Positions 2,141 to 60,500 of a stretch of DNA of 64,000 bases are shown here, one piece after another. The stretch's first letter is position 1; each line of letters starts with the position of its first letter. The translations under genes and the position numbers were made by a program. The notes under the pieces were generated by a model that saw only the letters and a list, made by a program, of their open reading frames with translations, searched no databases and was not told the DNA's origin. The DNA comes from Octopus sinensis. Taxonomy: Eukaryota. Location: NCBI RefSeq assembly GCF_006345805.1, contig NC_043000.1, positions 47,492,001 through 47,556,000 on the forward strand. The letters run 5' to 3'.

Positions 2141-2442
2141 AGCATACGTAACAGCTGTAACAAAGAATACCTAGCTCAAACACATATCCTTTTCTCCCAT
2201 TATTGTTGTGCTTTTTATGTATACATATATGTGTACGTGTGCACCTGTGTGTGTGTGTATTCGTCTATCCTTTTACTTGTTTCAATAATTTGACTGTGAC
2301 CATGCTGGAGCATACACGGCCTTGCAGGGTTTTAGTCGAACAAATTGACCCCAAGACTTATTTTTTAAATCTCTTTTGCCTAACCACTAAGTTACAGGAA
2401 TGATTTGGGACAAGGACACGCGCGCACACACACACACACACG

Positions 2443-2480
<38 letters not shown>

Positions 2481-2625
2481 ATAATATAAGAGAGTGGTCA
2501 CTATATGGCTCACTCTAGCACCAATTAATCCAAAAGGTTTCACCACAAAAATACATGTTTCCCATGAAAGTCAGTACGATTGCTAGCTCACACGGACAGG
2601 GCAAATAAAAAATAACAAAAATACA

Positions 2626-2716
2626 GATTATTTTGGGACAATTGTTTCGCTATTAATGAATTAAATGTAATTCAACTTACAACAAAATCCACTTGTAGCT
2701 CGTCAGCCAAAATATC
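2626..2716 (-). ncRNA. Type I hammerhead ribozyme (element A, inverted copy)
   Basis: Minus strand reads GATATTTTGG-CTGACGA-GCTA...TAGC-GAAA-CAATTG-TC-CCAAAATAATC. Confidence 0.8.
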
Positions 2717-3359
2717 TGATGAAATCCACTCAATCACACGCCAGATTTACCATAACGATAAATACGCGTGTGGTTCAATTGATTACATCCGACGTTATAA
2801 TTCAAATGCCCCAACTAACAGCGCGCCAAACTTTCACGGAAAACAAATACAGCATTTAGAAATAAATGCAGCATAATTATAATTAATTAATAGGGTGAGA
2901 GAATTAGATACTATTTAATAGATATCTATTCAACACCAAGTGGCCTAGTGCTCCGAGAAACCTGGATTATTATAATATTTTATAATATATTATAATATTT
3001 TTACAAAATAAATATAAGAGAGTGGTCACTATATGCTCACTCTAGCACCAATTAATCCAAAAGGTTTCGACCACAAAAAAACATGTTCCCATGAAAGTCA
3101 GTACGATTGCTAGCTCACACGGACAGGCAAATAAAAAATAAAAAAATACAGATTATTTTGGGACAATTGTTTCGCTATAATGAATTAATGTAATTTTACT
3201 TATGCTGCATTTATTTCTAAATGCTGTATTTGTTTTCCGTGAAAGTTTGGCGCGCTGTTAGTTGGGGCATTTGAATTATAACGTCGGATGTATCAATGAA
3301 CCACACGCGTATTTATCGTTATGGTAAAATCTGGCGTGTGATTGAGTGGATTTCATCCA

Positions 3360-3450
3360 GATAGTTTTGGCTGACGAGCTACAAGTGGATTTTTTGTAAG
3401 TAAAATTACATTTAATTCATTAATAGCGAAACAATTGTCCCAAAATAATC
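3360..3450 (+). ncRNA. Type I hammerhead ribozyme (element A)
   Basis: Stem I TTTTGG/CCAAAA; core CTGACGA at 3371; stem II GCTA/TAGC with a long insert; GAAA at 3428; palindromic stem III CAATTG; predicted GUC cleavage after 3439. Confidence 0.8.
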
Positions 3451-3714
3451 TGTATTTTTGTATTTTTTATTTGCCTGTCCGTGTGATAGCAATGTACTGA
3501 CTTCATGGGAAACATGTATTTTTGTGGTCGAAACCTTTTGGATTAATTGTGTGCTAGAGTGAGCCATATAGTGACCACTCTCTTATATTTATTTTGTAAA
3601 AATATTTAATATATTATAAATATTATAATAATCCAGGTTTCTCGGAGCACTAGGCCACTTGGTGTTGAATAGATATACTATTAAATTAGTATCTAATTCT
3701 CTCACCCTTATTAA

Positions 3715-3775
<61 letters not shown>

Positions 3776-3934
3776 CCGACAGGCTTCTTTCAGTTTCCGT
3801 CTACCAAATCCACTTTGGTCAGTCCGATGCTATAGTAGAAGACACCTGCCCAACGTGCTACGCAGGGGACTGAACCTGGAAACATGTGACTGGAAGCCAA
3901 GTTTTTTATCACACAACCATACCTGCGCATATAT

Positions 3935-3992
<58 letters not shown>

Positions 3993-3993
3993 C

Positions 3994-4045
<52 letters not shown>

Positions 4046-4440
4046 ATATATATACATATATATACACATATATACAGATAGATAGTTAAATAGATAGATA
4101 GATAGACAGACAGACAGACGGACGGACGGAGACAGGCAGCCAGACAAACATATTGATATATATTTATACGCATATATTTATACATATATGTAGGTATATG
4201 TGCATACATGCCAACACACACTTATACACACAATTATGTATAATTCTGTTGGGGAGCCGTAAAACTCGGAGCTCTAAAAGCGTCTAAATATTGAGCTAAA
4301 AAACCCTTAGAATAGAAAAAAAGGACGGTTTCCAATGGGACGTCACATGTATGTTTGCACACATACATACATGTGTATTAATATAAATATATACACATAT
4401 ATGAACATATATACATACATAAGAATATATATGTATATAC

Positions 4441-4492
<52 letters not shown>

Positions 4493-5045
4493 GTATGTAT
4501 GTATGTATGTATGTATGTATGCATGTATGTAAGTATGTATGTATAGTCGATTTTTCTAGGGAAAAGATGTTTAACCCTTCTCACAATGCTAGCCTTCTAT
4601 GTAAAACTTACCGGTAGTTTGTGTTCTGCCGTAAACGTTTACGGTATATGTGTCTTTTGTTATGTTACGAGAAATTGTAATGTTACTCCTGGATTTAGAT
4701 TAATGTTTCATGGTGTGCCTATTTTAACCTCTTCGAAATAGTTGCTTTTTATTTAAAAAAAAAAGCCGTAACTTCACCTTTTGCCGTTTCCTCACTCCCA
4801 TTGATTTCTATAGTAGTGGTGTTGGAATTAGTTATATTCATGTCAGTCTTTTTGACATATATGCTTTCTACCTCACCATCTTGACTCCTCCAAACCTTCC
4901 AGGAGCTTGTGAAATATCTATTAGTACATATTAATCTCTAATAGTACATATACACGCTTTTACACTAATCAGCTTTTACGATGCTCTCAGGCAAACACGG
5001 GGTATATAAATGACCAACTTCGTTTTCATCTCAATTCCAATCATA

Positions 5046-5347: not shown

Positions 5348-5808
5348 CAATTCCAATCATAGTCCTACATTATCCATAACTCATAAGTGCGTCCGCAATT
5401 AAATATTTTGTGCGACTGGCAGATTGGTAGACCACAATCCATATTATTATATAGCGACTAACTTCTTCTAATTGCTTGTGTCGTCTCAGCTTTTGAATTG
5501 TATGGGTCCGGGTTTTTTCTTTAATAAGTTTAGGTTTCTTGGCTTCCATCTGTTTATATTGGATAAGAAATTAATTTATCATCTCAAGGAAAATATGTGT
5601 TCAGCTTAATCTGTTCTACGCACAAAAAAAAAAGAATATAAAGTGAGCTGCGGAAATAAGGAGAAACAGATAGGAAAATACCCATTCAATTTAATCAAAC
5701 GTACTTTGAAGAAATATTAATATGAAGAAATACATGTATGCCTATAATATATTAGTGTGCGTGCACGTGTGTATGTATATATAGATATATATATATATAT
5801 ATATATAT

Positions 5809-6444
5809 AGCAATTAAGGACAACTACTTAAAAAGGAAAACTTAACAAGAAATTGTCAGGTAGATAGCGTGAAAACCTCATAAGAGAATAAATTTCGAAA
5901 ATAATTATTTCTTATTGAACATATTAATTTATATATAGAGGGCATTATACATACATGCCAGAGAGCATTATACATACATGCCACACGCTAAGAGGGACAA
6001 TTAGTCATTTCTACCAAAAAATATTACTAATTCCACCGAAACCTTATGAGGTTTTCACGCTATCTACCTGACAATTTCTTGTTAAGTTTTCCTTATTAAG
6101 TAGTTGTCCTTAATTGCTAAATTTTTATTCCGAAAAATCTTTTCCTCTCCCGAAATGCAATTCGTAAAAGTATGCCATTTACAGGATGTAATATATGTAA
6201 ACTCACCCATGTGCTTCGTTGATGTTGATCAGTTAGCTGATCGGCTTAAGCGGGACAGGGTCGTTTATTTATGATACATTCAGGCCTGCTGATGAATACG
6301 TAAGTATGAAATCACTGTGATACAGGTCTATATTTTTTAAATGTCTTATTTTGAAAAATTGCATTCGGTGGGATTAGTAATATTTTTTGGTAGAAATGAC
6401 TAATTGTCCCTCTTAGCGTGTGGCATGTATGTATAATGCTCTCT
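5809..6444. mobile_element. Retrozyme-like element B, left part
   Basis: Inverted piece 5809-6040 followed by a sense segment 6043-6444. Nearly identical to the 477-bp unit at 11361-12112; (TA)n on the left. Confidence 0.8.
6282..6329 (+). ncRNA. Minimal type I hammerhead ribozyme (element B, copy 1)
   Basis: AGGCCTG-CTGATGA-ATAC(GTAA)GTAT-GAAA-TCAC(T)GTGA-TA-CAGGTCT; predicted cleavage after 6322. Confidence 0.88.
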
Positions 6445-6700
6445 TACTTCTTTATTACGATTATACAATCGTTACATAGAAGGACAAATACAGGACATAC
6501 ATGCAAAAAACAGTTAAGAGGTTCGATTAAAAATTTTCCATAACATTTGGATTATTCATTATAAAAATTCGTCTATAAATTGTCCTTTACGTGACCAATA
6601 GAATATTATAACATTTCATAAACTTTCGATCTTACCGAAGTTTTAAACCCCGGCAATTTATAAGGCCCCGCAGCTTTTTTTTCCTCTCCTCCCTCCATAG

Positions 6701-9700
6701 TTAAGCTGGGTTTCTGACACCCACCTTTTTTTCCACTTCCTTCCATCTTTTCTCATACACACCCCGTGGTAAGATCCTCTTTTCCAGCCCCATTTTGCTC
6801 TTCAGATGATATCTGAAGTAAGTGAGCAAGCCGGGGCCCGAGACAAAGGATCCTATCGCGACTCCTTCCATTCTTGTTCGCCACATGCATTCTTTTACTA
6901 CTGCAACCGTGCAGTGAAAACATGCCTCACCTTCCTTCGAGAGTCCAGTTGGCGGTATCATCTTAATCATAGACTCAGCCGACAGCTGTACTCGTCCCAG
7001 ATGCGATAACACGTGTTCTGCGTAACTTATCAAGTCGGACAACTTCCGACAGTGTACAAAAGCGTGCTGGACGGTTTCATCGTCCAACTCGCACCTTGGA
7101 CACGTCGGTGGCACTGAAATTCCGTGCCGCGATAACTTCTCGCGAACAGGTAAAGCATTCCTATAGCACTGCCAGGCCAGGGATCTTTGGAAATTATCCA
7201 AGTACCCCGTCCTGAAAGTCTTTTTAAACAGGTTGGTAAGCTGGTCTTCGTCAACCCCAGAGCCCCTCCTAGGACGTCGTCGTTCTTTGCCTCTACCAGC
7301 CTTCTATAAAATACCGAGGTGGTATTTCCGCAGCCGGCCTTGCCCGCCTTGTGGATCAGCGTGAGTGCCTGTCGGCACTCCTTTTGCCATAAAGTCAGTT
7401 TCCATCTTTTGATGCGACCGGGTTTAAAATTCACTAAGGAGGCCGGTCTCGAGAAAAATTCCCCTGCCAGCGGACTCCACACCTTATCACCCTCCAGGTG
7501 GTGCCAGAGATGCTTCAGCCTCAACGCATGTCTGCGCATCATCAACCAAGGCATTCCTAACCCACCCTTTAACGGTTCCTGGCAGCAAACGGAGCGCCTC
7601 ACAAGTGGCTTTTCCTCCCTTCCACAAAAAGCGGAAAAGGATTCGCTCCAACTTGCTAAGCCATGAATCGGGGCAAGGGACAACGGTCAGGCGGTAAGTG
7701 ATTACAGATGCAATGAACATCTGTACCACCTCCACCCTTCCTTTCAAGGACAGAAACCTTCCGGACCAGGTCCGTACTATGGCCTCCACCTTGCTCGTCA
7801 CCTCACTCACTCCAGTTCCTCTCCGTTTGGGAGTCTGGCCCAAACCAACTCCTAGCAACTTAACAGGGCCATCCGTCCAGTGTCCCACGACACTGGACGA
7901 TATCGACTTGCTCCTCCAGGTGCCGAGGCGCAAGCCACCGACTTGTCCTTGTTAACCTTTGCTCCTGCCACCGCCTCGTATCCTCTGATAGCCTCTTCCA
8001 CACAAGGTAGCTGGGCCTCATTGGACACGATGAGGGTGACGTCATCCGCATAAGCAGTAACCGTCCTCCCACCTCCGATCTCATCCGAGTTACTTCCCAG
8101 CCTCTCCAACTTTCGCAGCAATGGCTCAAGAGCCAACACGTACAAAAGTGGTGACAAGGGGCACCCTTGACGAACTGAACATTCGATCGAAAACGGTTCC
8201 GTTAGGTAACCGTTTATCTGGACGGTGGACTTGATGCCGCTATACATAGCGGAGATCCACCCGCGAAATTCAGGGCCCAGTCCAGCCGCTTCGAGGACCG
8301 TCGCCAGGTACTCATGGTCTACCCTATCGAACGCTTTACTTTGGTCTAAATGGACCATTACCCCGCCCTTGCCGGTTAATTTACCCACCCTATCTAAGGT
8401 GTAGCGTATAAGGTGAAGATTGTCCTGGATCGACCTGCCTGGAATTGCACATGTCTGTGCTCTCCCTACAAGTTTCTCCACGACAACCGTCAACCTTTTT
8501 GCCAACACCTTGGCCAAAATCTTTAACTCTACATTAAGTAGAGTTATGGGCCTGTAGTTACTAATGTTATCCCCCTTGCTCGGGTCTTTCTGGATTAGCG
8601 TCACCACTCCCCGGCTTACAGAACTGGGAATTCTCCCATTCTGCTGCCAGTTCGTGTAGACGCCTGCCAATATTCCCCCGAACAAGTCCGGCATACTTTG
8701 GTAAAACTCGTAGGGCAGACCATCCAACCCCGGCGACTTCTCCCCGGCGCATCCGGCCAGCATCTCCTCTATCTCCGCGGGAGTGATCGCTTCTTCACAG
8801 CACTCCACCTCACGCCCCGAGAGCCGCGGTCCGCCGGCCAGGAAGTCCTTTAAGGTCCTCCCCCGCTCCGGCGCCACACCACCCCCGAACACGCGGGCGA
8901 AATGCTGGTGAAGAAACTTTTGCATCTCCTCCTGTCCATAGATCTTTTGTCCCTGTTCGTCAGTTAAAGACTTGATTGAGGCTTTGTTACCTCCTGACTC
9001 TCTCTCTCACTCGACGGGCCCATCCGGCAACGTTAATACCTTCTCGTTTCCCAGCGCGTAGCTTAGCTCTGACTCTGCAACCTTCGTGTTTGGAGTTAAG
9101 GTGACGGTACAATACCGTCCTTGCCGCCATCACTCCGGATGCAGAGCCAGCTTCCATTGCCTCGTTTAGATTCTTAACTAAATCGTCCTCTATCCTAGAC
9201 CTATCTAACCTTAGCTGATTGCTAAATCTAATGGACTCTGAACGAATGGCTCTTTTGAGGGAGTGCCACCATCTATTGTTAATGATGGTGCCACACAATG
9301 CCCTCTGTACTAACACCTTAATCCGGGTACGGAAGTCTTCACAATTCAAAATAGCCTTGTTCAGCTTCCAGTACCCGGGTCCCTGTCTATGACACTTGTC
9401 TAATTGCATCCTACACGTCACAAATTTGTGATCCGTGTAAGGCACAATGTGAAACTGTGGACAACTAAACGTATCCTTATCTCTTTTCTTAATAAATATC
9501 CTATCTAAATACGATCTGTGTGAGCCGTCGTTGTTACTCCACGTCCACTGTGGAACGCTCAGCTCATCCAGTCGGTAACGGTCCACTAGATCAAAGCTCT
9601 CTAGTAGACCCTTGAGGCTAGGGTTCCCCTTCCTATTGGTTGAGCCAACACTGTCGACCCGCGCTTCAAGGACAGTGTTAAAGTCCCCTACTAGGATTAC

Positions 9701-10095
9701 CGTTTTCGACGTCGCTAAAAAGGGCTCCAGGTTCCGAAAAAACCCGTCTGTCTACTCTCGTTCGGAGCGTAGACAGCTACCAACCTGAAGGACTGTTTAC
9801 TTACGTGGGTCACATCCAGAACAACCAGCCTGCCTTCTGGGTCCAGAAAGACAGTACTTACCTGCAAGTCCAAGCTCTTCCTGATAAGGACTGCCACGCC
9901 TCTGCCTCTTCCTCGGCTAGGAGAAATAAATTTCTCGAACCCATTTAGAAGAGGCGAGAACGCTTGGGCCTCGTTCATCTTGGACTCGGTTGCAATAGCT
10001 ATGTCTACTCCATGTGTCGTGAGGTCGTCCAGGAAGCAAATTTGTTTCCATTCCGACCCCATTCCACGTACATTCACACAACCCAGCTTAGCCAT
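6701..10095 (-). pseudogene. LINE ORF2 (APE endonuclease, reverse transcriptase, C-terminal zinc finger), split by several frameshifts
   Basis: Endonuclease motifs VNVRG, SYLDRIF, TDHK. RT motifs KSPGLDGLP, NYRPITLLN, LDQSKAFDRV, RQGCPLSP, YADD. C-terminal CPRC..H..HC. Spread over ORFs 9715..10095, 8987..9586, 7852..8925, 7487..7933, 7030..7683 and 6701..7201. Confidence 0.92.
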
Positions 10096-10122
10096 TGTCG
10101 GTGAGAGAAAAAATAAATGAAC

Positions 10123-11364
10123 TTACGGTTGAGAAAGGGAGCATGACAGTTTAAATCTGCCCGCCTCCCCTTCTTCCTCCCTTGTGGTCGTAGCTGCAGG
10201 GCTCTTAACCGGCGTTGCCACCGGGCTCTGGGTAGGTGTGGTTGCCGGGGTTATAACAAGTTTACCCTCCAGTACTTCTTTTGTTACATCTCTAATCAGT
10301 CTATTCTTTAGATGTTCCTGCAGTACTTCCTCCTTCCACCCGTCTTCCCCCACTTTTGCGAAGCGAGTGGTTGCTTTTATGTCTGTAGCCTTGCTAAATA
10401 GTTTAAATTTTGAAAATTTATAGTATTTATATACCCTTTCGTTTGTTTCATCAAAAGCAATGATCTTATCATTTTTTTTTAAAGACTTTTTCACATCTTG
10501 TTTTATGGGGAGGGGCTTGGCGAACTGTTTCCCAATGAATACAGTGCCATGGGGGTAGGGCTGGGGAATTTGCTTTGTGTGTATGTCTGCGGTGCTTGCT
10601 GATTTTTTCCTTGTTTGGGGAGGGGAGTCCAGGGTTTTGTCTTTTTTTCTTTTGTGTGTCACCTGTGTGTAATCCATTTGTTCGGTACAATCCGTTTCTG
10701 TTTCTTTGCTTGTCGTCGTCTTGTTTTCTTTTTCCGCCTTCTCCCCTTCAGTGTTAGAAGCACTTTGAGGAGGGGCTTCATTGGTTTTCTTTTTTTTTAA
10801 GCAGTTCGAGCGGACGTGACCCTTCTCGCCACATTTAAAACATCTAGGTCTGCGCCCCTCCACTGACACTCTCATGGACGTTCCATCTTCGTTAAATATC
10901 CTATCGGGCAGGTTCTCCAATATCTTGTTCTCTGCCTGAACGAGGAGTTCCAGCGTCTGTCCCTTCCAGCGTACCTCCTCTTTCCTTCTCATCTGCAGAA
11001 TCGAAATTTCCCGCTCTACATTGTGCAGGACCGCCGCTGCTACCCACATAATATCATACCCTCTCGGTATGTCCTCTACCAGCAGTTTAGCTGTTCTTTT
11101 TCCCATATACGAGGGTAGCAGCATGATATCATCATTTTTCAGGGTCAATGATGACACCTCTCTTGCTACCTCAGCCGAGTCAAAATGTGCTTCAACAGTA
11201 GCGCTGCGAGCACCTCGAACGACATGGCGAATTTTGTCCCACACCGCGGACAAGCACTTTTCGACAATTTCGTTTCTGACGTCCATAATTTTCTTTTCTT
11301 TGTAGCTATACACTTTGTATATAACTGTTTTTTCCTTTATTTCTTGTACCTTCGCTTGTACCAT
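10123..11364 (-). CDS. LINE ORF1, gag-like nucleic-acid-binding protein (413 aa)
   Basis: Uninterrupted ORF; CFKCGEKGHVRSNC zinc knuckle; basic low-complexity C-terminus; ends 28 bp before the ORF2 start. Confidence 0.88.
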   Translation of the reverse strand: MVQAKVQEIKEKTVIYKVYSYKEKKIMDVRNEIVEKCLSAVWDKIRHVVRGARSATVEAHFDSAEVAREVSSLTLKNDDIMLLPSYMGKRTAKLLVEDIPRGYDIMWVAAAVLHNVEREISILQMRRKEEVRWKGQTLELLVQAENKILENLPDRIFNEDGTSMRVSVEGRRPRCFKCGEKGHVRSNCLKKKKTNEAPPQSASNTEGEKAEKENKTTTSKETETDCTEQMDYTQVTHKRKKDKTLDSPPQTRKKSASTADIHTKQIPQPYPHGTVFIGKQFAKPLPIKQDVKKSLKKNDKIIAFDETNERVYKYYKFSKFKLFSKATDIKATTRFAKVGEDGWKEEVLQEHLKNRLIRDVTKEVLEGKLVITPATTPTQSPVATPVKSPAATTTREEEGEAGRFKLSCSLSQP

Positions 11365-11435
11365 GTGCTTCGTTGATGTTGATCAGTTAGCTGATCGGCT
11401 TAAGCGGGACAGGGTCGTTTATTTATGATACATTC

Positions 11436-11483
11436 AGGCCTGCTGATGAATACGTAAGTATGAAATCACTGTGATACAGGTCT
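11436..11483 (+). ncRNA. Minimal type I hammerhead ribozyme (element B, copy 2)
   Basis: Identical to 6282-6329. Confidence 0.88.
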
Positions 11484-11912
11484 ATATTTTTTAAATGTCT
11501 TATTTTGAAAAATTGCATTCGGTGGGATTAGTAATATTTTTTGGTAGAAATGACTAATTGTCCCTCTTAGCGTGTGGCATGTATGTATAATGCTCTCTGG
11601 CATGTATGTATAATGCCCTCTATATATAAATTAATATGTTCAATAAGAAATAATTATTTTCGAAATTTATTCTCTTATGAGGTTTTCACGCTATCTACCT
11701 GACAATTTCTTGTTAAGTTTTCCTTATTAAGTAGTTGTCCTTAATTGCTAAATTTTTATTCCGAAAAAACTTTTCCTCTCCCGAAATGCAATTCGTAAAA
11801 GTATGCCATTTACAGGATGTAATATATGTAAACTCACCCATGTGCTTCGTTGATGTTGATCAGTTAGCTGATCGGCTTAAGCGGGACAGGGTCGTTTATT
11901 TATGATACATTC

Positions 11913-11960
11913 AGGCCTGCTGATGAATACGTAAGTATGAAATCACTGTGATACAGGTCT
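11913..11960 (+). ncRNA. Minimal type I hammerhead ribozyme (element B, copy 3)
   Basis: Identical to 6282-6329. Confidence 0.88.
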
Positions 11961-12107
11961 ATATTTTTTAAATGTCTTATTTTGAAAAATTGCATTCGGT
12001 GGGATTAGTAATATTTTTTGGTAGAAATGACTAATTGTCCCTCTTAGCGTGTGGCATGTATGTATAATGCTCTCTGGCATGTATGTATAATGCCCTCTAT
12101 ATATAAA

Positions 12108-12180
<73 letters not shown>

Positions 12181-12182
<2 letters not shown>

Positions 12183-12716
12183 AGTTTAACATTAAGGATA
12201 ATCTCTTAATAAGGGATCTTAACAAGAAATTATCGGGTAGCTAGCGTGAAAACCTCATAAAAGAAAAGAATCCGAAAATAATTTTTTTCTTTTGAACAAA
12301 TTAATTATATCTATATTGTATAGAGGGCATTATTACACATAAATGCCTCACACTAGGAGGGACAAAGTCATTACTACCAAAAATTATACTAATCATACCC
12401 AATGCAGTTTTTCAAAGCAAGACTTTAAAAATGAATTATGTTCTGTATCACCGTGATTTCACATACAACTTGCGTCTAATGATCGTCAGCAGAACTGATT
12501 CTGAATACATCATAAATAAACTACCAACCTTACGTAGCGGAGACGAACAGACAACTGTTCACTCCGGCCAAGCACATGGAATGTTTATAAATCATATATC
12601 CGGTAAATGGCGGGCTTTTTACGAACTGCATGTCGGGTAATGAAAAGTATTTCGGAATAAGTTTAACAATTAAGGATAATCTCTTAATAAGGGATCTTAA
12701 CAAGAAATTATCGGGT
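12181..12716 (-). mobile_element. Retrozyme-like element C, a diverged relative of B (477-bp period, ~58-bp terminal redundancy)
   Basis: TAAGTTTAAC..TTATCGGGTA at 12181 and 12658; colinear similarity to element B; (TA)n on both sides. Confidence 0.8.
12440..12495 (-). ncRNA. Type I hammerhead ribozyme (element C)
   Basis: Minus strand: GTTCTG-CTGACGA-(imperfect stem II with GAC-GCAA-GTT)-GAAA-TCAC(G)GTGA-TA-CAGAAC. Confidence 0.75.
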
Positions 12717-13259
12717 ATATATATATATACACACACAGAAACATACATGCATATATATATTTATATATATTTATGTATATATATATATGTGTATATATAA
12801 TATATATATTTATGAATATATATACACACATATTCACATATATAATACAAATAATATATATATATAATATATATATATATACATATATAGATAATATATT
12901 TATGTATTTATATATATATATATATATAATATATATATATATATATACATATATAGATATATATATTTATGTATATATATATATATGTATATACATATGT
13001 ATATGTACATACATCTATACGTATATTATGCATATGTAGGCACAGGACGTCACGAAACGTGTACAACAAAAAATACGAAGCACGAGTTCATGGAATATGA
13101 ACTATTTATTCGAACAACGAAAGACACAAATGGAAAACAAGACAAACAACATAAAGAACGACCCTTCATCAGCTGTTGGCTGTTTTTCTACTCTCGTATT
13201 TCGAACATATATACACATATATATATATATTACACAAACACACACACATATATACATAT

Positions 13260-57504: not shown

Positions 57505-57889
57505 TGGAAGCACTCCATCGGTTACGACGATGAGGGTTCCGGTTGATCCGAATCAACGGAACAGCCTGCTCGTGAAATTAACGTGTAAGTGGCTGAGCAC
57601 TCCACAGACACGCGTACCCTTAACGTAGTTCTCGGGGATATTCAGCGTGACACAGAGAGTGATAAGGCCGGCCCTTTGAAATACAGGTACAACAGAAACA
57701 GGAAGTAAGAGTGAGAGAAAGTTGTGGTGAAAGAGTACAGCAGGGATCACTACGATCCCCTGCCGGAGCCTCGTGGAGCTTTAGGTGTTTTCGCTCAATA
57801 AACACTCACAACGCCCGGTCTGAGAATCGAAACCGCGATCCTATGACCGCGAGTCCGCTGCCCTAACCACTGAGCCATTGCGCCTCCAC
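57505..57889 (-). mobile_element. Family C SINE, young full-length copy
   Basis: Near-identical reverse complement of 58053-58440. Confidence 0.88.
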
Positions 57890-58052
57890 GGAAGTAATAA
57901 TAGTAGTAATAACGTGAACAATTCCACCACCACTATCAACAGTGAGAGCGGAACAGGTACTTTTGAAGCAGCAACTGCGAAATGCCAACAAAGGTACTAT
58001 GAGATAGACATAGATGTCTATCTCATATGTTAGCCCCAGTCCACAATCTCAT

Positions 58053-58440
58053 GTGGAGGCGCAATGGCCCAGTGGTTAGGGCAGCGGACTCGCGGTCATA
58101 TGATCGCGGTTTCGATTCTCAGACCGGACGTTGTGAGTGTTTATTGAGCGGAAACACCTAAAGCTCCACGAGGCTCCGGCAGGGGATGGTGGTGATCCCT
58201 GCTGTACTCTTTCATCACAACTTTCTCTCACTCTTACTTCCTGTTTCTGTTGTACCTGTATTTCAAAGGGCCGGCCTTGTCACTCTCTGTGTCATGCTGA
58301 ATATCCCCGAGAACTGCGTTAAGGGTACACGTGTCTGTGGAGTGCTCAGCCACTTACACGTTAATTTCACGAGCAGGCTGTTCCGTTGATTCGGATCAAC
58401 CGGAACCCTCGTCGTCGTAACCGACGGAGTGCTTCCACCA
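58053..58440 (+). mobile_element. Family C SINE, young full-length copy
   Basis: tRNA-like head; 12-bp TSD CCACAATCTCAT at 58041-58052 and 58441-58452. Confidence 0.9.
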
Positions 58441-58549: not shown

Positions 58550-59490
58550 TTAGAGCTTTATATTCCCATGAAAGACTTCCTTGGTGAACTTTTGCGAGGT
58601 GTCTACCGCAACTGGCAGCAGAACGGTAGAACACCCGAGTCTGTGAGCCGAGGTGTAGTGGAGCTTCTAAAAAGGAGGGATCAACTGGCTGGTCCCTTCC
58701 AGAGGACTTTCGGACCAGCCCAACATCACTTCTAGAAATCCTTGGCCTGGCAGGGCTACCGGGAGGCGGAGGTTCTGTCGGTTCGTAATAAGCTTTACAG
58801 GCACGGGTGTGCAGTCAGACAGGCTTGTCCGTGATGCACGCGGAGCGATGAAACCGTTCTGCATGCTTTCGTACAGTGTCCACACATTGCTGACTAGTGG
58901 AGCTTTGTCGAACAGTTATTGTCTCGTGTAGGACGGATCTGGTTATCATCCGAGTCCATCGTGAAGATCGCCCCTCCTCCTTCCTTTGGTCAGGAAGGAC
59001 AGGCAGTTTTTCTCTGTCTGGTGACTATAGCGACAGAGATTGTGTGGTGGATGCGATTGAAGGGTTGAAGGCAGGTACCTTCCTCTCCGGTCAAGATTTC
59101 ATTGACTTTTTCAGGTTCCACCTGAAAAGGAATGTGAGGTTGGAGAGGGAGGTGCTGTCACCCAGTAAGTTTGTTGAACGGTGGATGAATGTGAAAAAAA
59201 TGGCCCGTGTGAATAGGCCTACTCTAAGTGTGCACCTACAGGCCGGATGGAATGAGAAGAGAGTGCCTACCTGAGATGCCTTTGGTGTTAGGGTTCCAAA
59301 ATGTGTGAGGTTCCTTTAGGCACCTCTCGATGGAACTCCTCCCCCCTATTGCGGAAGTACACTGTTGGTTTAATCCCCTTGTTAATTGTGTTTTCTATTC
59401 TGTTTACACGTTTAACCCCACTGTTCCTCGTCTTTGTATCGTCCTTTATGATTTGTGTTCGGGCCTAGTAGCTAATAAAAAAAGTATCAT
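58550..59490 (+). pseudogene. Decayed, internally deleted Tx1-like LINE related to 6445-11364
   Basis: GVYRNWQQNGRTPESVSRGVV matches GVYTNWQQNGRIPSSVSRGVV; FFRFHLKRNVRLER matches YFRYHLKSKMGLEK; AATAAA followed by (TAC)n. Confidence 0.8.
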
Positions 59491-60117: not shown

Positions 60118-60500
60118 GGATGGGAAGCACTCCGTCGGTTACGACGACGAGGGTTCCGGTTGATCCGAATCAACGGAACAGTCTGCTCGTGATATTAACG
60201 TATAAGTGGCCGAGCACTCCACAGACACGTGTACCCTTAACGTAGTTCTCGGGGATATTCAGCGTGACACAGAGAGTGACAAGGCCGGCCCTTTGAAATA
60301 CAGGTACAACAGAAACAGGAAGTAAGAGAAAGTTGTGGTGAAAGAGTACAGCAGGGATCACCACCATCCCCTGCGGAGCCGCGTGGAGCTTTAGGTGTTT
60401 TCGCTCAATAAACACTCACAACGCCCGGTCTGGGAATCGAAACCGCGATCCTATGACCGCGAGTCCGCTGCCCTAACCACTGGGCCATTGCGCCTCCACT
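60118..60500 (-). mobile_element. Family C SINE, full length
   Basis: 11-bp TSD GCAACAGTAGT at 60107-60117 and 60501-60511. Confidence 0.88.

Follow-up and report, generated by a model that had tools for sequence, protein, structure and literature searches.

Recurrent insertion of an octopus LINE sub-lineage at one base of a hammerhead-bearing repeat, with probable steering by TATA start sites and two endonuclease residues

Introduction

A stretch of 64,000 nucleotides from Octopus sinensis (NCBI RefSeq assembly GCF_006345805.1, contig NC_043000.1, positions 47,492,001 to 47,556,000 of the forward strand), hereafter the window, presents a puzzle: How did a long interspersed nuclear element (LINE) come to lie between two identical repeats of 238 bp that each carry a hammerhead ribozyme motif? 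The repeats, at 6207-6444 and 11361-11598, match exactly at an offset of 5154, and the LINE between them (6445-11358, minus strand) is antisense to the ribozymes and has no poly(A) tail, all of which an earlier note on this DNA had described and our analysis confirms. That note offered either a long target duplication or a 239-bp deletion in a tandem array as the origin of the repeats, and suggested further that the LINE may target the repeat as a retrozyme family, or that a plus-strand transcript cut at both hammerheads could release an RNA of about 5.15 kb carrying the LINE as cargo. The answer that we consider fairly probable is that one LINE sub-lineage inserted independently at a single base of the retrozyme in nine loci, steered by start sites marked with a TATA motif and by two changes in its endonuclease.

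Nine Insertions at One Base

The repeats belong to a unit of 477 bp, numbered here so that unit base 1 is window position 11622; the 3' end of the window LINE, at 6445, adjoins unit base 454. The earlier note had proposed looking for the same composite elsewhere, and it is found with this junction base and orientation at nine loci. With the junction as query, 9 of 41 rows span the LINE-unit boundary, on eight contigs (C4, C13, C6 twice, C5, C11, C3, C1 and C8 in our numbering), and among the 128 distinct LINE 3' ends of all fetched loci the nine that touch the unit are every one antisense at base 454, with no sense-orientation end in the unit. Empty sites matching the target pattern number only 531 (166 + 365, by exact patterns). 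Each locus possesses private unit alleles, common to the piece adjacent to the LINE and to the arms of the array, such as 414A at C6:14.96M, 326G/353A at C5 and 443G/445G at C13; since these alleles lie on both LINE flanks or in the inverted arm, the insertions are independent and the composite did not travel. At C3:18.017 Mb (L103), about 117 bp are missing from the 5' end of the composite LINE; unrelated DNA comes next, and the stretch retrieved for this locus contains no tandem arm. Contigs of four DNA or unlabelled runs and of four runs guessed to be RNA cover both elements, with no listed piece bridging either junction, and were not used as evidence.

The Element and Its Endonuclease Alleles

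The Pfam domains of the LINE (PF03372, PF00078, PF13966 and PF00098) correspond to an apurinic/apyrimidinic (APE) endonuclease, reverse transcriptase (RT), zf-RVT and the zinc knuckle of the first open reading frame (ORF1). By this domain set, which is also shared with other L1-group elements, the LINE is classed as L1/Tx1-type. Its Tx1 label is putative and taken over from the earlier note; the nearest named homologs are from cephalopods, with no named Tx1 reference among the homologs listed. Of the 5289 bp of the full-length form, the window copy is missing the initial 379, and it has ORF2 (6701-10095, minus strand; APE endonuclease, RT and zf-RVT) split over several frames, preceded by an ORF1 remnant without its start that retains the CCHC zinc knuckle (10123-11358, minus strand); being 5'-truncated and broken in ORF2, it is probably inactive. 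An uninterrupted ORF2 of 1129 codons is present in another copy of the hammerhead lineage (L094, C1:154.83 Mb), and 12 other copies checked have it interrupted, some breaks being possibly assembly indels.

An alignment of 29 long copies contains just two columns whose state is shared by all eight copies of the hammerhead lineage and by none of the 21 others: codon 15, changed from Lys to Glu (K15E), and codon 23, changed from Asn to Asp (N23D), both non-synonymous and located at 10027-10053 on the minus strand of the window. A 32-letter pattern over both codons, searched genome-wide with 1 mismatch allowed, has exactly eight matches, all in composite loci, while the LINE of the ninth composite is truncated before these codons. 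Kojima recognises target preference when over 20% of flanks lie in one repeat; for the Glu15/Asp23 lineage the figure is 8/8. The proposal that the LINE may target the retrozyme family is thus supported for one sub-lineage, with nine loci at the same base and orientation and all eight allele carriers there, and does not extend to the family at large, which has 9/128 of its distinct 3' ends in the unit. At codons 15 and 23 the contigs of the guessed-RNA runs have the Lys/Asn allele, which we did not use as evidence either. In the zinc-finger lineage described below, codon 14 is the sole near-marker.

Sister copies that are 95-99% identical use other targets, at least six unrelated ones overall: a repeat in a C2H2 zinc-finger cluster, a dispersed and tandem repeat of 725 bp, further repeats and dispersed sites. 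Target duplications of 13-19 bp are the norm of the family. In the LINE tree, the nine composites form a clade (100/100) together with one non-composite copy; a second tree of 30 rows, from which the C6:14.96M copy was left out because of its split hit, requires 2 changes of target label vs. 7.3 when labels are shuffled, with no starred clade. The three copies sharing a 5' junction at unit base 41 form one clade (100/99), yet lie in different unit haplotypes. Over columns 2400-4800 no majority site separates the window and C13 copies from the zinc-finger-cluster lineage, whereas 4 do at the endonuclease start. Judged from such columns, the element is a mosaic, and its trees cluster target labels.

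Several features of the sister targets deserve mention. Dozens of copies occupy one repeat site at C28:4.3-5.5 Mb, where the repeat lies within a C2H2 zinc-finger gene cluster, and at C2:195.34-195.38 Mb (L097, L108, L109, L145 and L218); this site is TGGAG with TATA at -30, and a second used site is found 21 bp beyond it. The 725-bp repeat, target of another sub-lineage, is non-coding (C2:87.307-87.317 Mb, L217, and L147, L182, L183 and L190), has (TA)n at its borders, contains a duplicated TATA module, and gives no match to the hammerhead pattern, tRNA or Rfam. The 3' end of the LINE is also shared by a sister family (L303-L342, ends ATCG...), whose copies are inserted in sense just before a CTGATGA motif in other repeats; a TATA-like sequence lies at -28 to -30 there. 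Head-to-tail LINE stacks with 5.3-kb spacing are present at C1:74.18-74.20 Mb, C2:49.40-49.41 Mb, C2:157.23-157.24 Mb and C10162, with a single target duplication between neighbouring copies, an arrangement to be expected when a newcomer inserts in front of a resident copy.

A TATA Motif at -30

What do these unrelated targets have in common? At all five targets of the discovery set, TATAWAW lies at exactly -30 with no more than one mismatch. Held-out targets, a further non-redundant set of 21 in which a duplication could be read, have the motif at this very position in 10/21 cases (up to one mismatch) and 4/21 (exact); shuffles give means of 0.35 and 0.03, and 0/2000 reach the observed value in each case. 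Left out of this set were copies without duplication, repeats of targets already counted and stacked copies with another LINE end upstream (L104, L146, L190, L263, L270, L307, L308 and L319). A sister family has TATA at -30 in 4/6. In the window, the motif occupies -30 to -24 relative to 11598|11599, the empty target site, when this is read in the direction of the LINE (11622-11628, minus strand; it repeats at 12099-12105). The tandem duplication reported at the LINE 3' junction is present, with a measured period of 23 rather than 22, and the TATA spacing offers a plausible reason why no insertion uses the neighbouring 23-bp copy.

A TATA motif at -30 is typical of RNA polymerase II (Pol II) promoters. 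No tRNA or Rfam family was found at the targets checked, and RNA polymerase III (Pol III) genes were not encountered among them. The motif also stands at exactly -30 beside short truncated copies of 319-1229 bp (L002, L023, L320, L327 and L331), which favours a role in the insertion step over later selection for expression. Full-length copies have 5' heads resembling relics of earlier targets, a feature consistent with transcription that starts at +1 of the target. Homing of the LINE to transcription start sites is therefore likely, and so is the choice of this particular repeat by the two changed endonuclease residues.

Deletion or Duplication at the 5' Junction

Contrary to the fixed 3' end, the 5' junctions are of six kinds, falling at unit bases 217 (window), 151, 41 (three times), 441, 442 and 17, and once in an unrelated flank. 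Those at 441 and 442 have 13-14-bp duplications and a full-length LINE. In five loci (unit 151, 41, 41, 41 and 17), the piece on the LINE 3' side begins beyond the 5' junction point and is too short for a long duplication; hence only deletion fits. Between the two origins that the earlier note left open, these five sister loci favour deletion, and the 238-bp repeat of the window is likely the product of a deletion that removed 239 bp of the target within a tandem array. A long target duplication was rejected as a general account, being possible only in the window and impossible in the five. Moreover, comparison of the locus with itself at offset 477 gives 277 bp of exact identity, and 402 bp with one differing base; with units so nearly identical, 238 bp of identity is expected and does not denote a special pair resembling long terminal repeats (LTRs).

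A Proposed Mechanism and Its Difficulties

How could promoter spacing and endonuclease residues act together? We propose that the TATA motif on the antisense strand of the retrozyme would be bound by the TATA-binding protein (TBP), the preinitiation complex or ORF2 itself; the bound factor or ORF2 would position the nick near +1, and endonuclease residues 14-23 would select among start sites. Full-length copies with the upstream TATA intact could then be transcribed from the borrowed start. In the window, the 5' end probably attached to the tandem arm at a point 239 bp farther on, so that the upstream TATA was lost and an apparent direct repeat of 238 bp remained. Priming may be aided by read-through in the RNA, which may also account for the 5' junction at unit 41 that three copies share. 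Tethering and causality are what we infer here; the fixed 3' junction and orientation, the independence of the insertions, the occurrence of TATA at -30 across numerous unrelated targets, the match between Glu15/Asp23 and target, and the 13-19-bp duplications are observations. A broader version, which we regard as tentative and somewhat less probable than its opposite, would have the whole family tethered to TBP-bound TATA boxes and inserting at Pol II start sites, with 1-3 amino acid changes in one loop switching it among promoter-bearing repeats (retrozyme, zinc-finger genes and satellites); the antisense TATA of the retrozyme would then be one captured promoter among others.

Several points weigh against the proposed steering. 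TATA at -30 is missing in 11/21 held-out targets; in the retrozyme it is also an AT-rich end which the retrozyme needs for other reasons, and the role of these positions as start sites is predicted from sequence. Common descent confounds the link of allele to target, and in other lineages Ser-Lys-Trp is found with TGGAG, ACTA and CCTTA targets alike. In favour of a role for these residues, codons 15 and 23 align between Asn19 and Lys23 of the L1 endonuclease, a patch in contact with the DNA backbone at -4 to -6 (PMC8565326); against it, the alignment is weak (E 0.13) and the contact is with the backbone, not with bases. Substitutions are enriched in the loop (12/17), within bounds chosen after the sites had been seen. 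Positive selection on the whole endonuclease, considered as a candidate, is not seen, a general non-synonymous excess being absent (17:22 vs. 45:43, p 0.45). Finally, the 5' junction of the window is without independent read support in the run contigs examined, and for the window taken alone a duplication of 238 bp is geometrically possible.

Weighing Other Explanations

The most serious competitor is RNA-guided homing, in which read-through RNA of the tail-less LINE anneals to the nicked target, so that a lineage returns to the repeat of its parent and the endonuclease changes merely hitchhike. Besides the lack of a poly(A) tail, it would account for the flanks of dispersed copies, which often open with the 3-5 bases of their lineage, for four copies of one subclade that all lie in the AGATGG unit subtype (166/531 empty sites), for the unit-41 junction shared by three related copies in differing haplotypes and for the 5' heads with relics of other targets; such homing is known for R1Bm (as cited in PMC7265360). 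It leaves unexplained, however, why TATA occurs at exactly -30 in unrelated, non-homologous upstream DNA, and why the window copy groups with the lineage of another target in its 3' half and with the retrozyme target at its endonuclease start. As a substitute for TATA steering we consider it unlikely, while it may act together with it. Sequence specificity of the endonuclease by itself, of the classical kind established for Tx1L and R1Bm (PMC1950540, PMC1919474), accords with the match of allele to target and would have the TATA association arise later, via transcription of promoter copies; the short truncated copies at dispersed sites, whose single-copy status is assumed, also have TATA at exactly -30, and this account thus appears highly improbable.

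Scarcely any more credible is mobility of the composite as a unit, by which a plus-strand RNA cut at two hammerheads would carry the antisense LINE as cargo and be copied by Penelope-type enzymes. The layout of (TA)n, inverted arm, partial unit, LINE and tandem arm does recur, both junctions are common to three loci, and the LINE lies in the first unit after the inversion join in 9/9 cases, including arrays of 6-10 sites. Yet 109/141 LINE-free sites (77%) are also first in their arm (p about 0.10); a hand count conditional on array size gives about 0.005, and the position is not clearly beyond background. Every locus, including the three sharing junctions, has its own unit haplotype on both flanks, which largely refutes this explanation, and whole hammerheads on both sides are present in only 2/9. 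With private haplotypes, differing 5' junctions and so few paired hammerheads, the 5.15-kb cargo RNA of the earlier note finds no support. The locus-private haplotypes were also the ground for discarding a bridging read-through RNA from another locus.

The Hammerhead Unit and the Layout of the Window

The CTGATGA core is found at 6289 and 11443, within the two 238-bp copies as the earlier note had stated, and a third time at 11920; cuts are predicted after 6322 and 11476. Because an Rfam search of 6200-6450 gave no hammerhead match, the call relies on motif, fold and two compensatory changes in stem I: the predicted fold is of type I, with three stems and a palindromic stem III, and the two compensatory pairs are seen in older relatives of the unit. 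The core is kept in 182 pattern matches, from overlapping loci. The unit itself has 33% GC and no ORF of 80 aa inside, and belongs to a young, dispersed family of 1118 candidates with arrays on many contigs; by these features it qualifies as a putative non-LTR retrozyme-type element. Many unit copies have a two-armed layout with ends at fixed AT-rich points, as expected for retrozymes mobilised by Penelope elements, the mobilisation proposed for metazoan non-LTR retrozymes (PMC7229834; bioRxiv 10.64898/2026.07.22.740005). One contig of the guessed-RNA runs returns on itself after 481 bases, which a tandem array gives as well.

At the window locus, the retrozyme insertion begins after a (TA)n tract (5772-5809) with an inverted arm (about 5809-6040, minus strand; unit 374-477 and 1-138), followed by a partial unit on the plus strand (6043-6444, unit 53-454) that contains the first hammerhead motif (6282-6329) and terminates at the LINE. 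Beyond the LINE and 2 bases matching neither element (11359-11360) comes the tandem arm on the plus strand (11361-12114; unit 217-477, 1-477 and 1-16), with hammerheads near 11436-11483 and 11913-11960, then a second (TA)n tract (12098-12182). The description of a LINE nested in a hammerhead array is consequently apt for the right side, where the arm is tandem, and not for the left end, which is inverted. The same right-hand tract adjoins an older relative of the unit (12178-12721, minus strand), about 73% identical, on the opposite strand, with its own hammerhead motif and a longer stem II. Further along, at 57505-58437, 60123-60328 and 58574-58660, an inverted repeat of 385 bp and 97% identity with a further partial copy accompanies a short 72% match to the LINE RT, possibly another two-armed insertion.

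Significance and Comparison with Known Systems

How target-specific LINEs switch targets is an open question, and copies that are 95-99% identical with few endonuclease differences make it directly testable. If true, the TATA rule, precise to the base, would mean that an animal LINE does at Pol II-type promoters what Ty3 and TRE5 do at Pol III ones, namely insert at a set position, and would explain the repeated insertions in a zinc-finger gene cluster; the locus would also present a chain of parasites in three layers (Penelope-type enzyme, retrozyme and LINE) and a natural allelic series linking endonuclease residues to target choice. Among open titles and abstract openings, outside Repbase, our literature search met no report of a LINE at a -30 TATA spacing or in a retrozyme, and in the available part of a repeat annotation for octopus Tx1 comes up in a table and nowhere else (PMC13282606).

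LINEs of the Tx1 clade prefer other repeats or genes, as Tx1L does Tx1D, Tx1-Mar Mariner-N4_AMi, Keno U2, and Tx1-8_Crp and Tx1-4_AMi LTR elements (Kojima 2015, PMC4494074). Ours resembles them in its APE-type endonuclease, fixed place in another repeat, target duplications or truncations and possibly flank-driven transcription, and differs in striking a hammerhead retrozyme on the antisense strand and in having near-identical sisters whose targets, at least six and unrelated, have TATA at -30 in common and are tracked by single endonuclease alleles. R1Bm and SART1 are likewise site-specific APE LINEs, in which priming may be assisted when the RNA includes target sequence from downstream (PMC7265360, PMC1919474), each family having, unlike here, one fixed target and no rule of promoter spacing; R1Bm residues 18-19, in the same loop, affect cleavage of one strand (PMC1919474), and the shifts in specificity obtained with loop grafts and point mutants in published work were only partial (PMC1950540, PMC1919474).

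The unit resembles metazoan non-LTR retrozymes (PMC7229834) in its non-coding, low-GC tandem sequence, type I hammerhead and many young, dispersed copies. Its 477 bp lie just above the quoted 150-450 bp (PMC7229834; bioRxiv 10.64898/2026.07.22.740005), and it departs from the available descriptions in its two-armed inverted insertions in (TA)n and in serving as a landing site for a LINE. In contrast to ribozyme-flanked cargo elements (LTR-retrozyme, Terminon-like), the flanking ribozyme repeats and junctions are not shared by descent here. The closest parallel for the spacing rule is that of Ty3, which inserts within 1-4 nt of the start, and of the non-LTR element TRE5-A of Dictyostelium, whose ORF1 binds TBP, Brf1 and Bdp1 (PMC5911963): in all of them the distance from insertion to promoter element stays constant over unrelated targets, here in 5/5 discovery and 10/21 held-out cases. 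Those elements reach Pol III genes via TFIIIB, whereas the octopus LINE has a Pol II-like TATA at -30 as its putative cue and faces away from it, in the direction of transcription.

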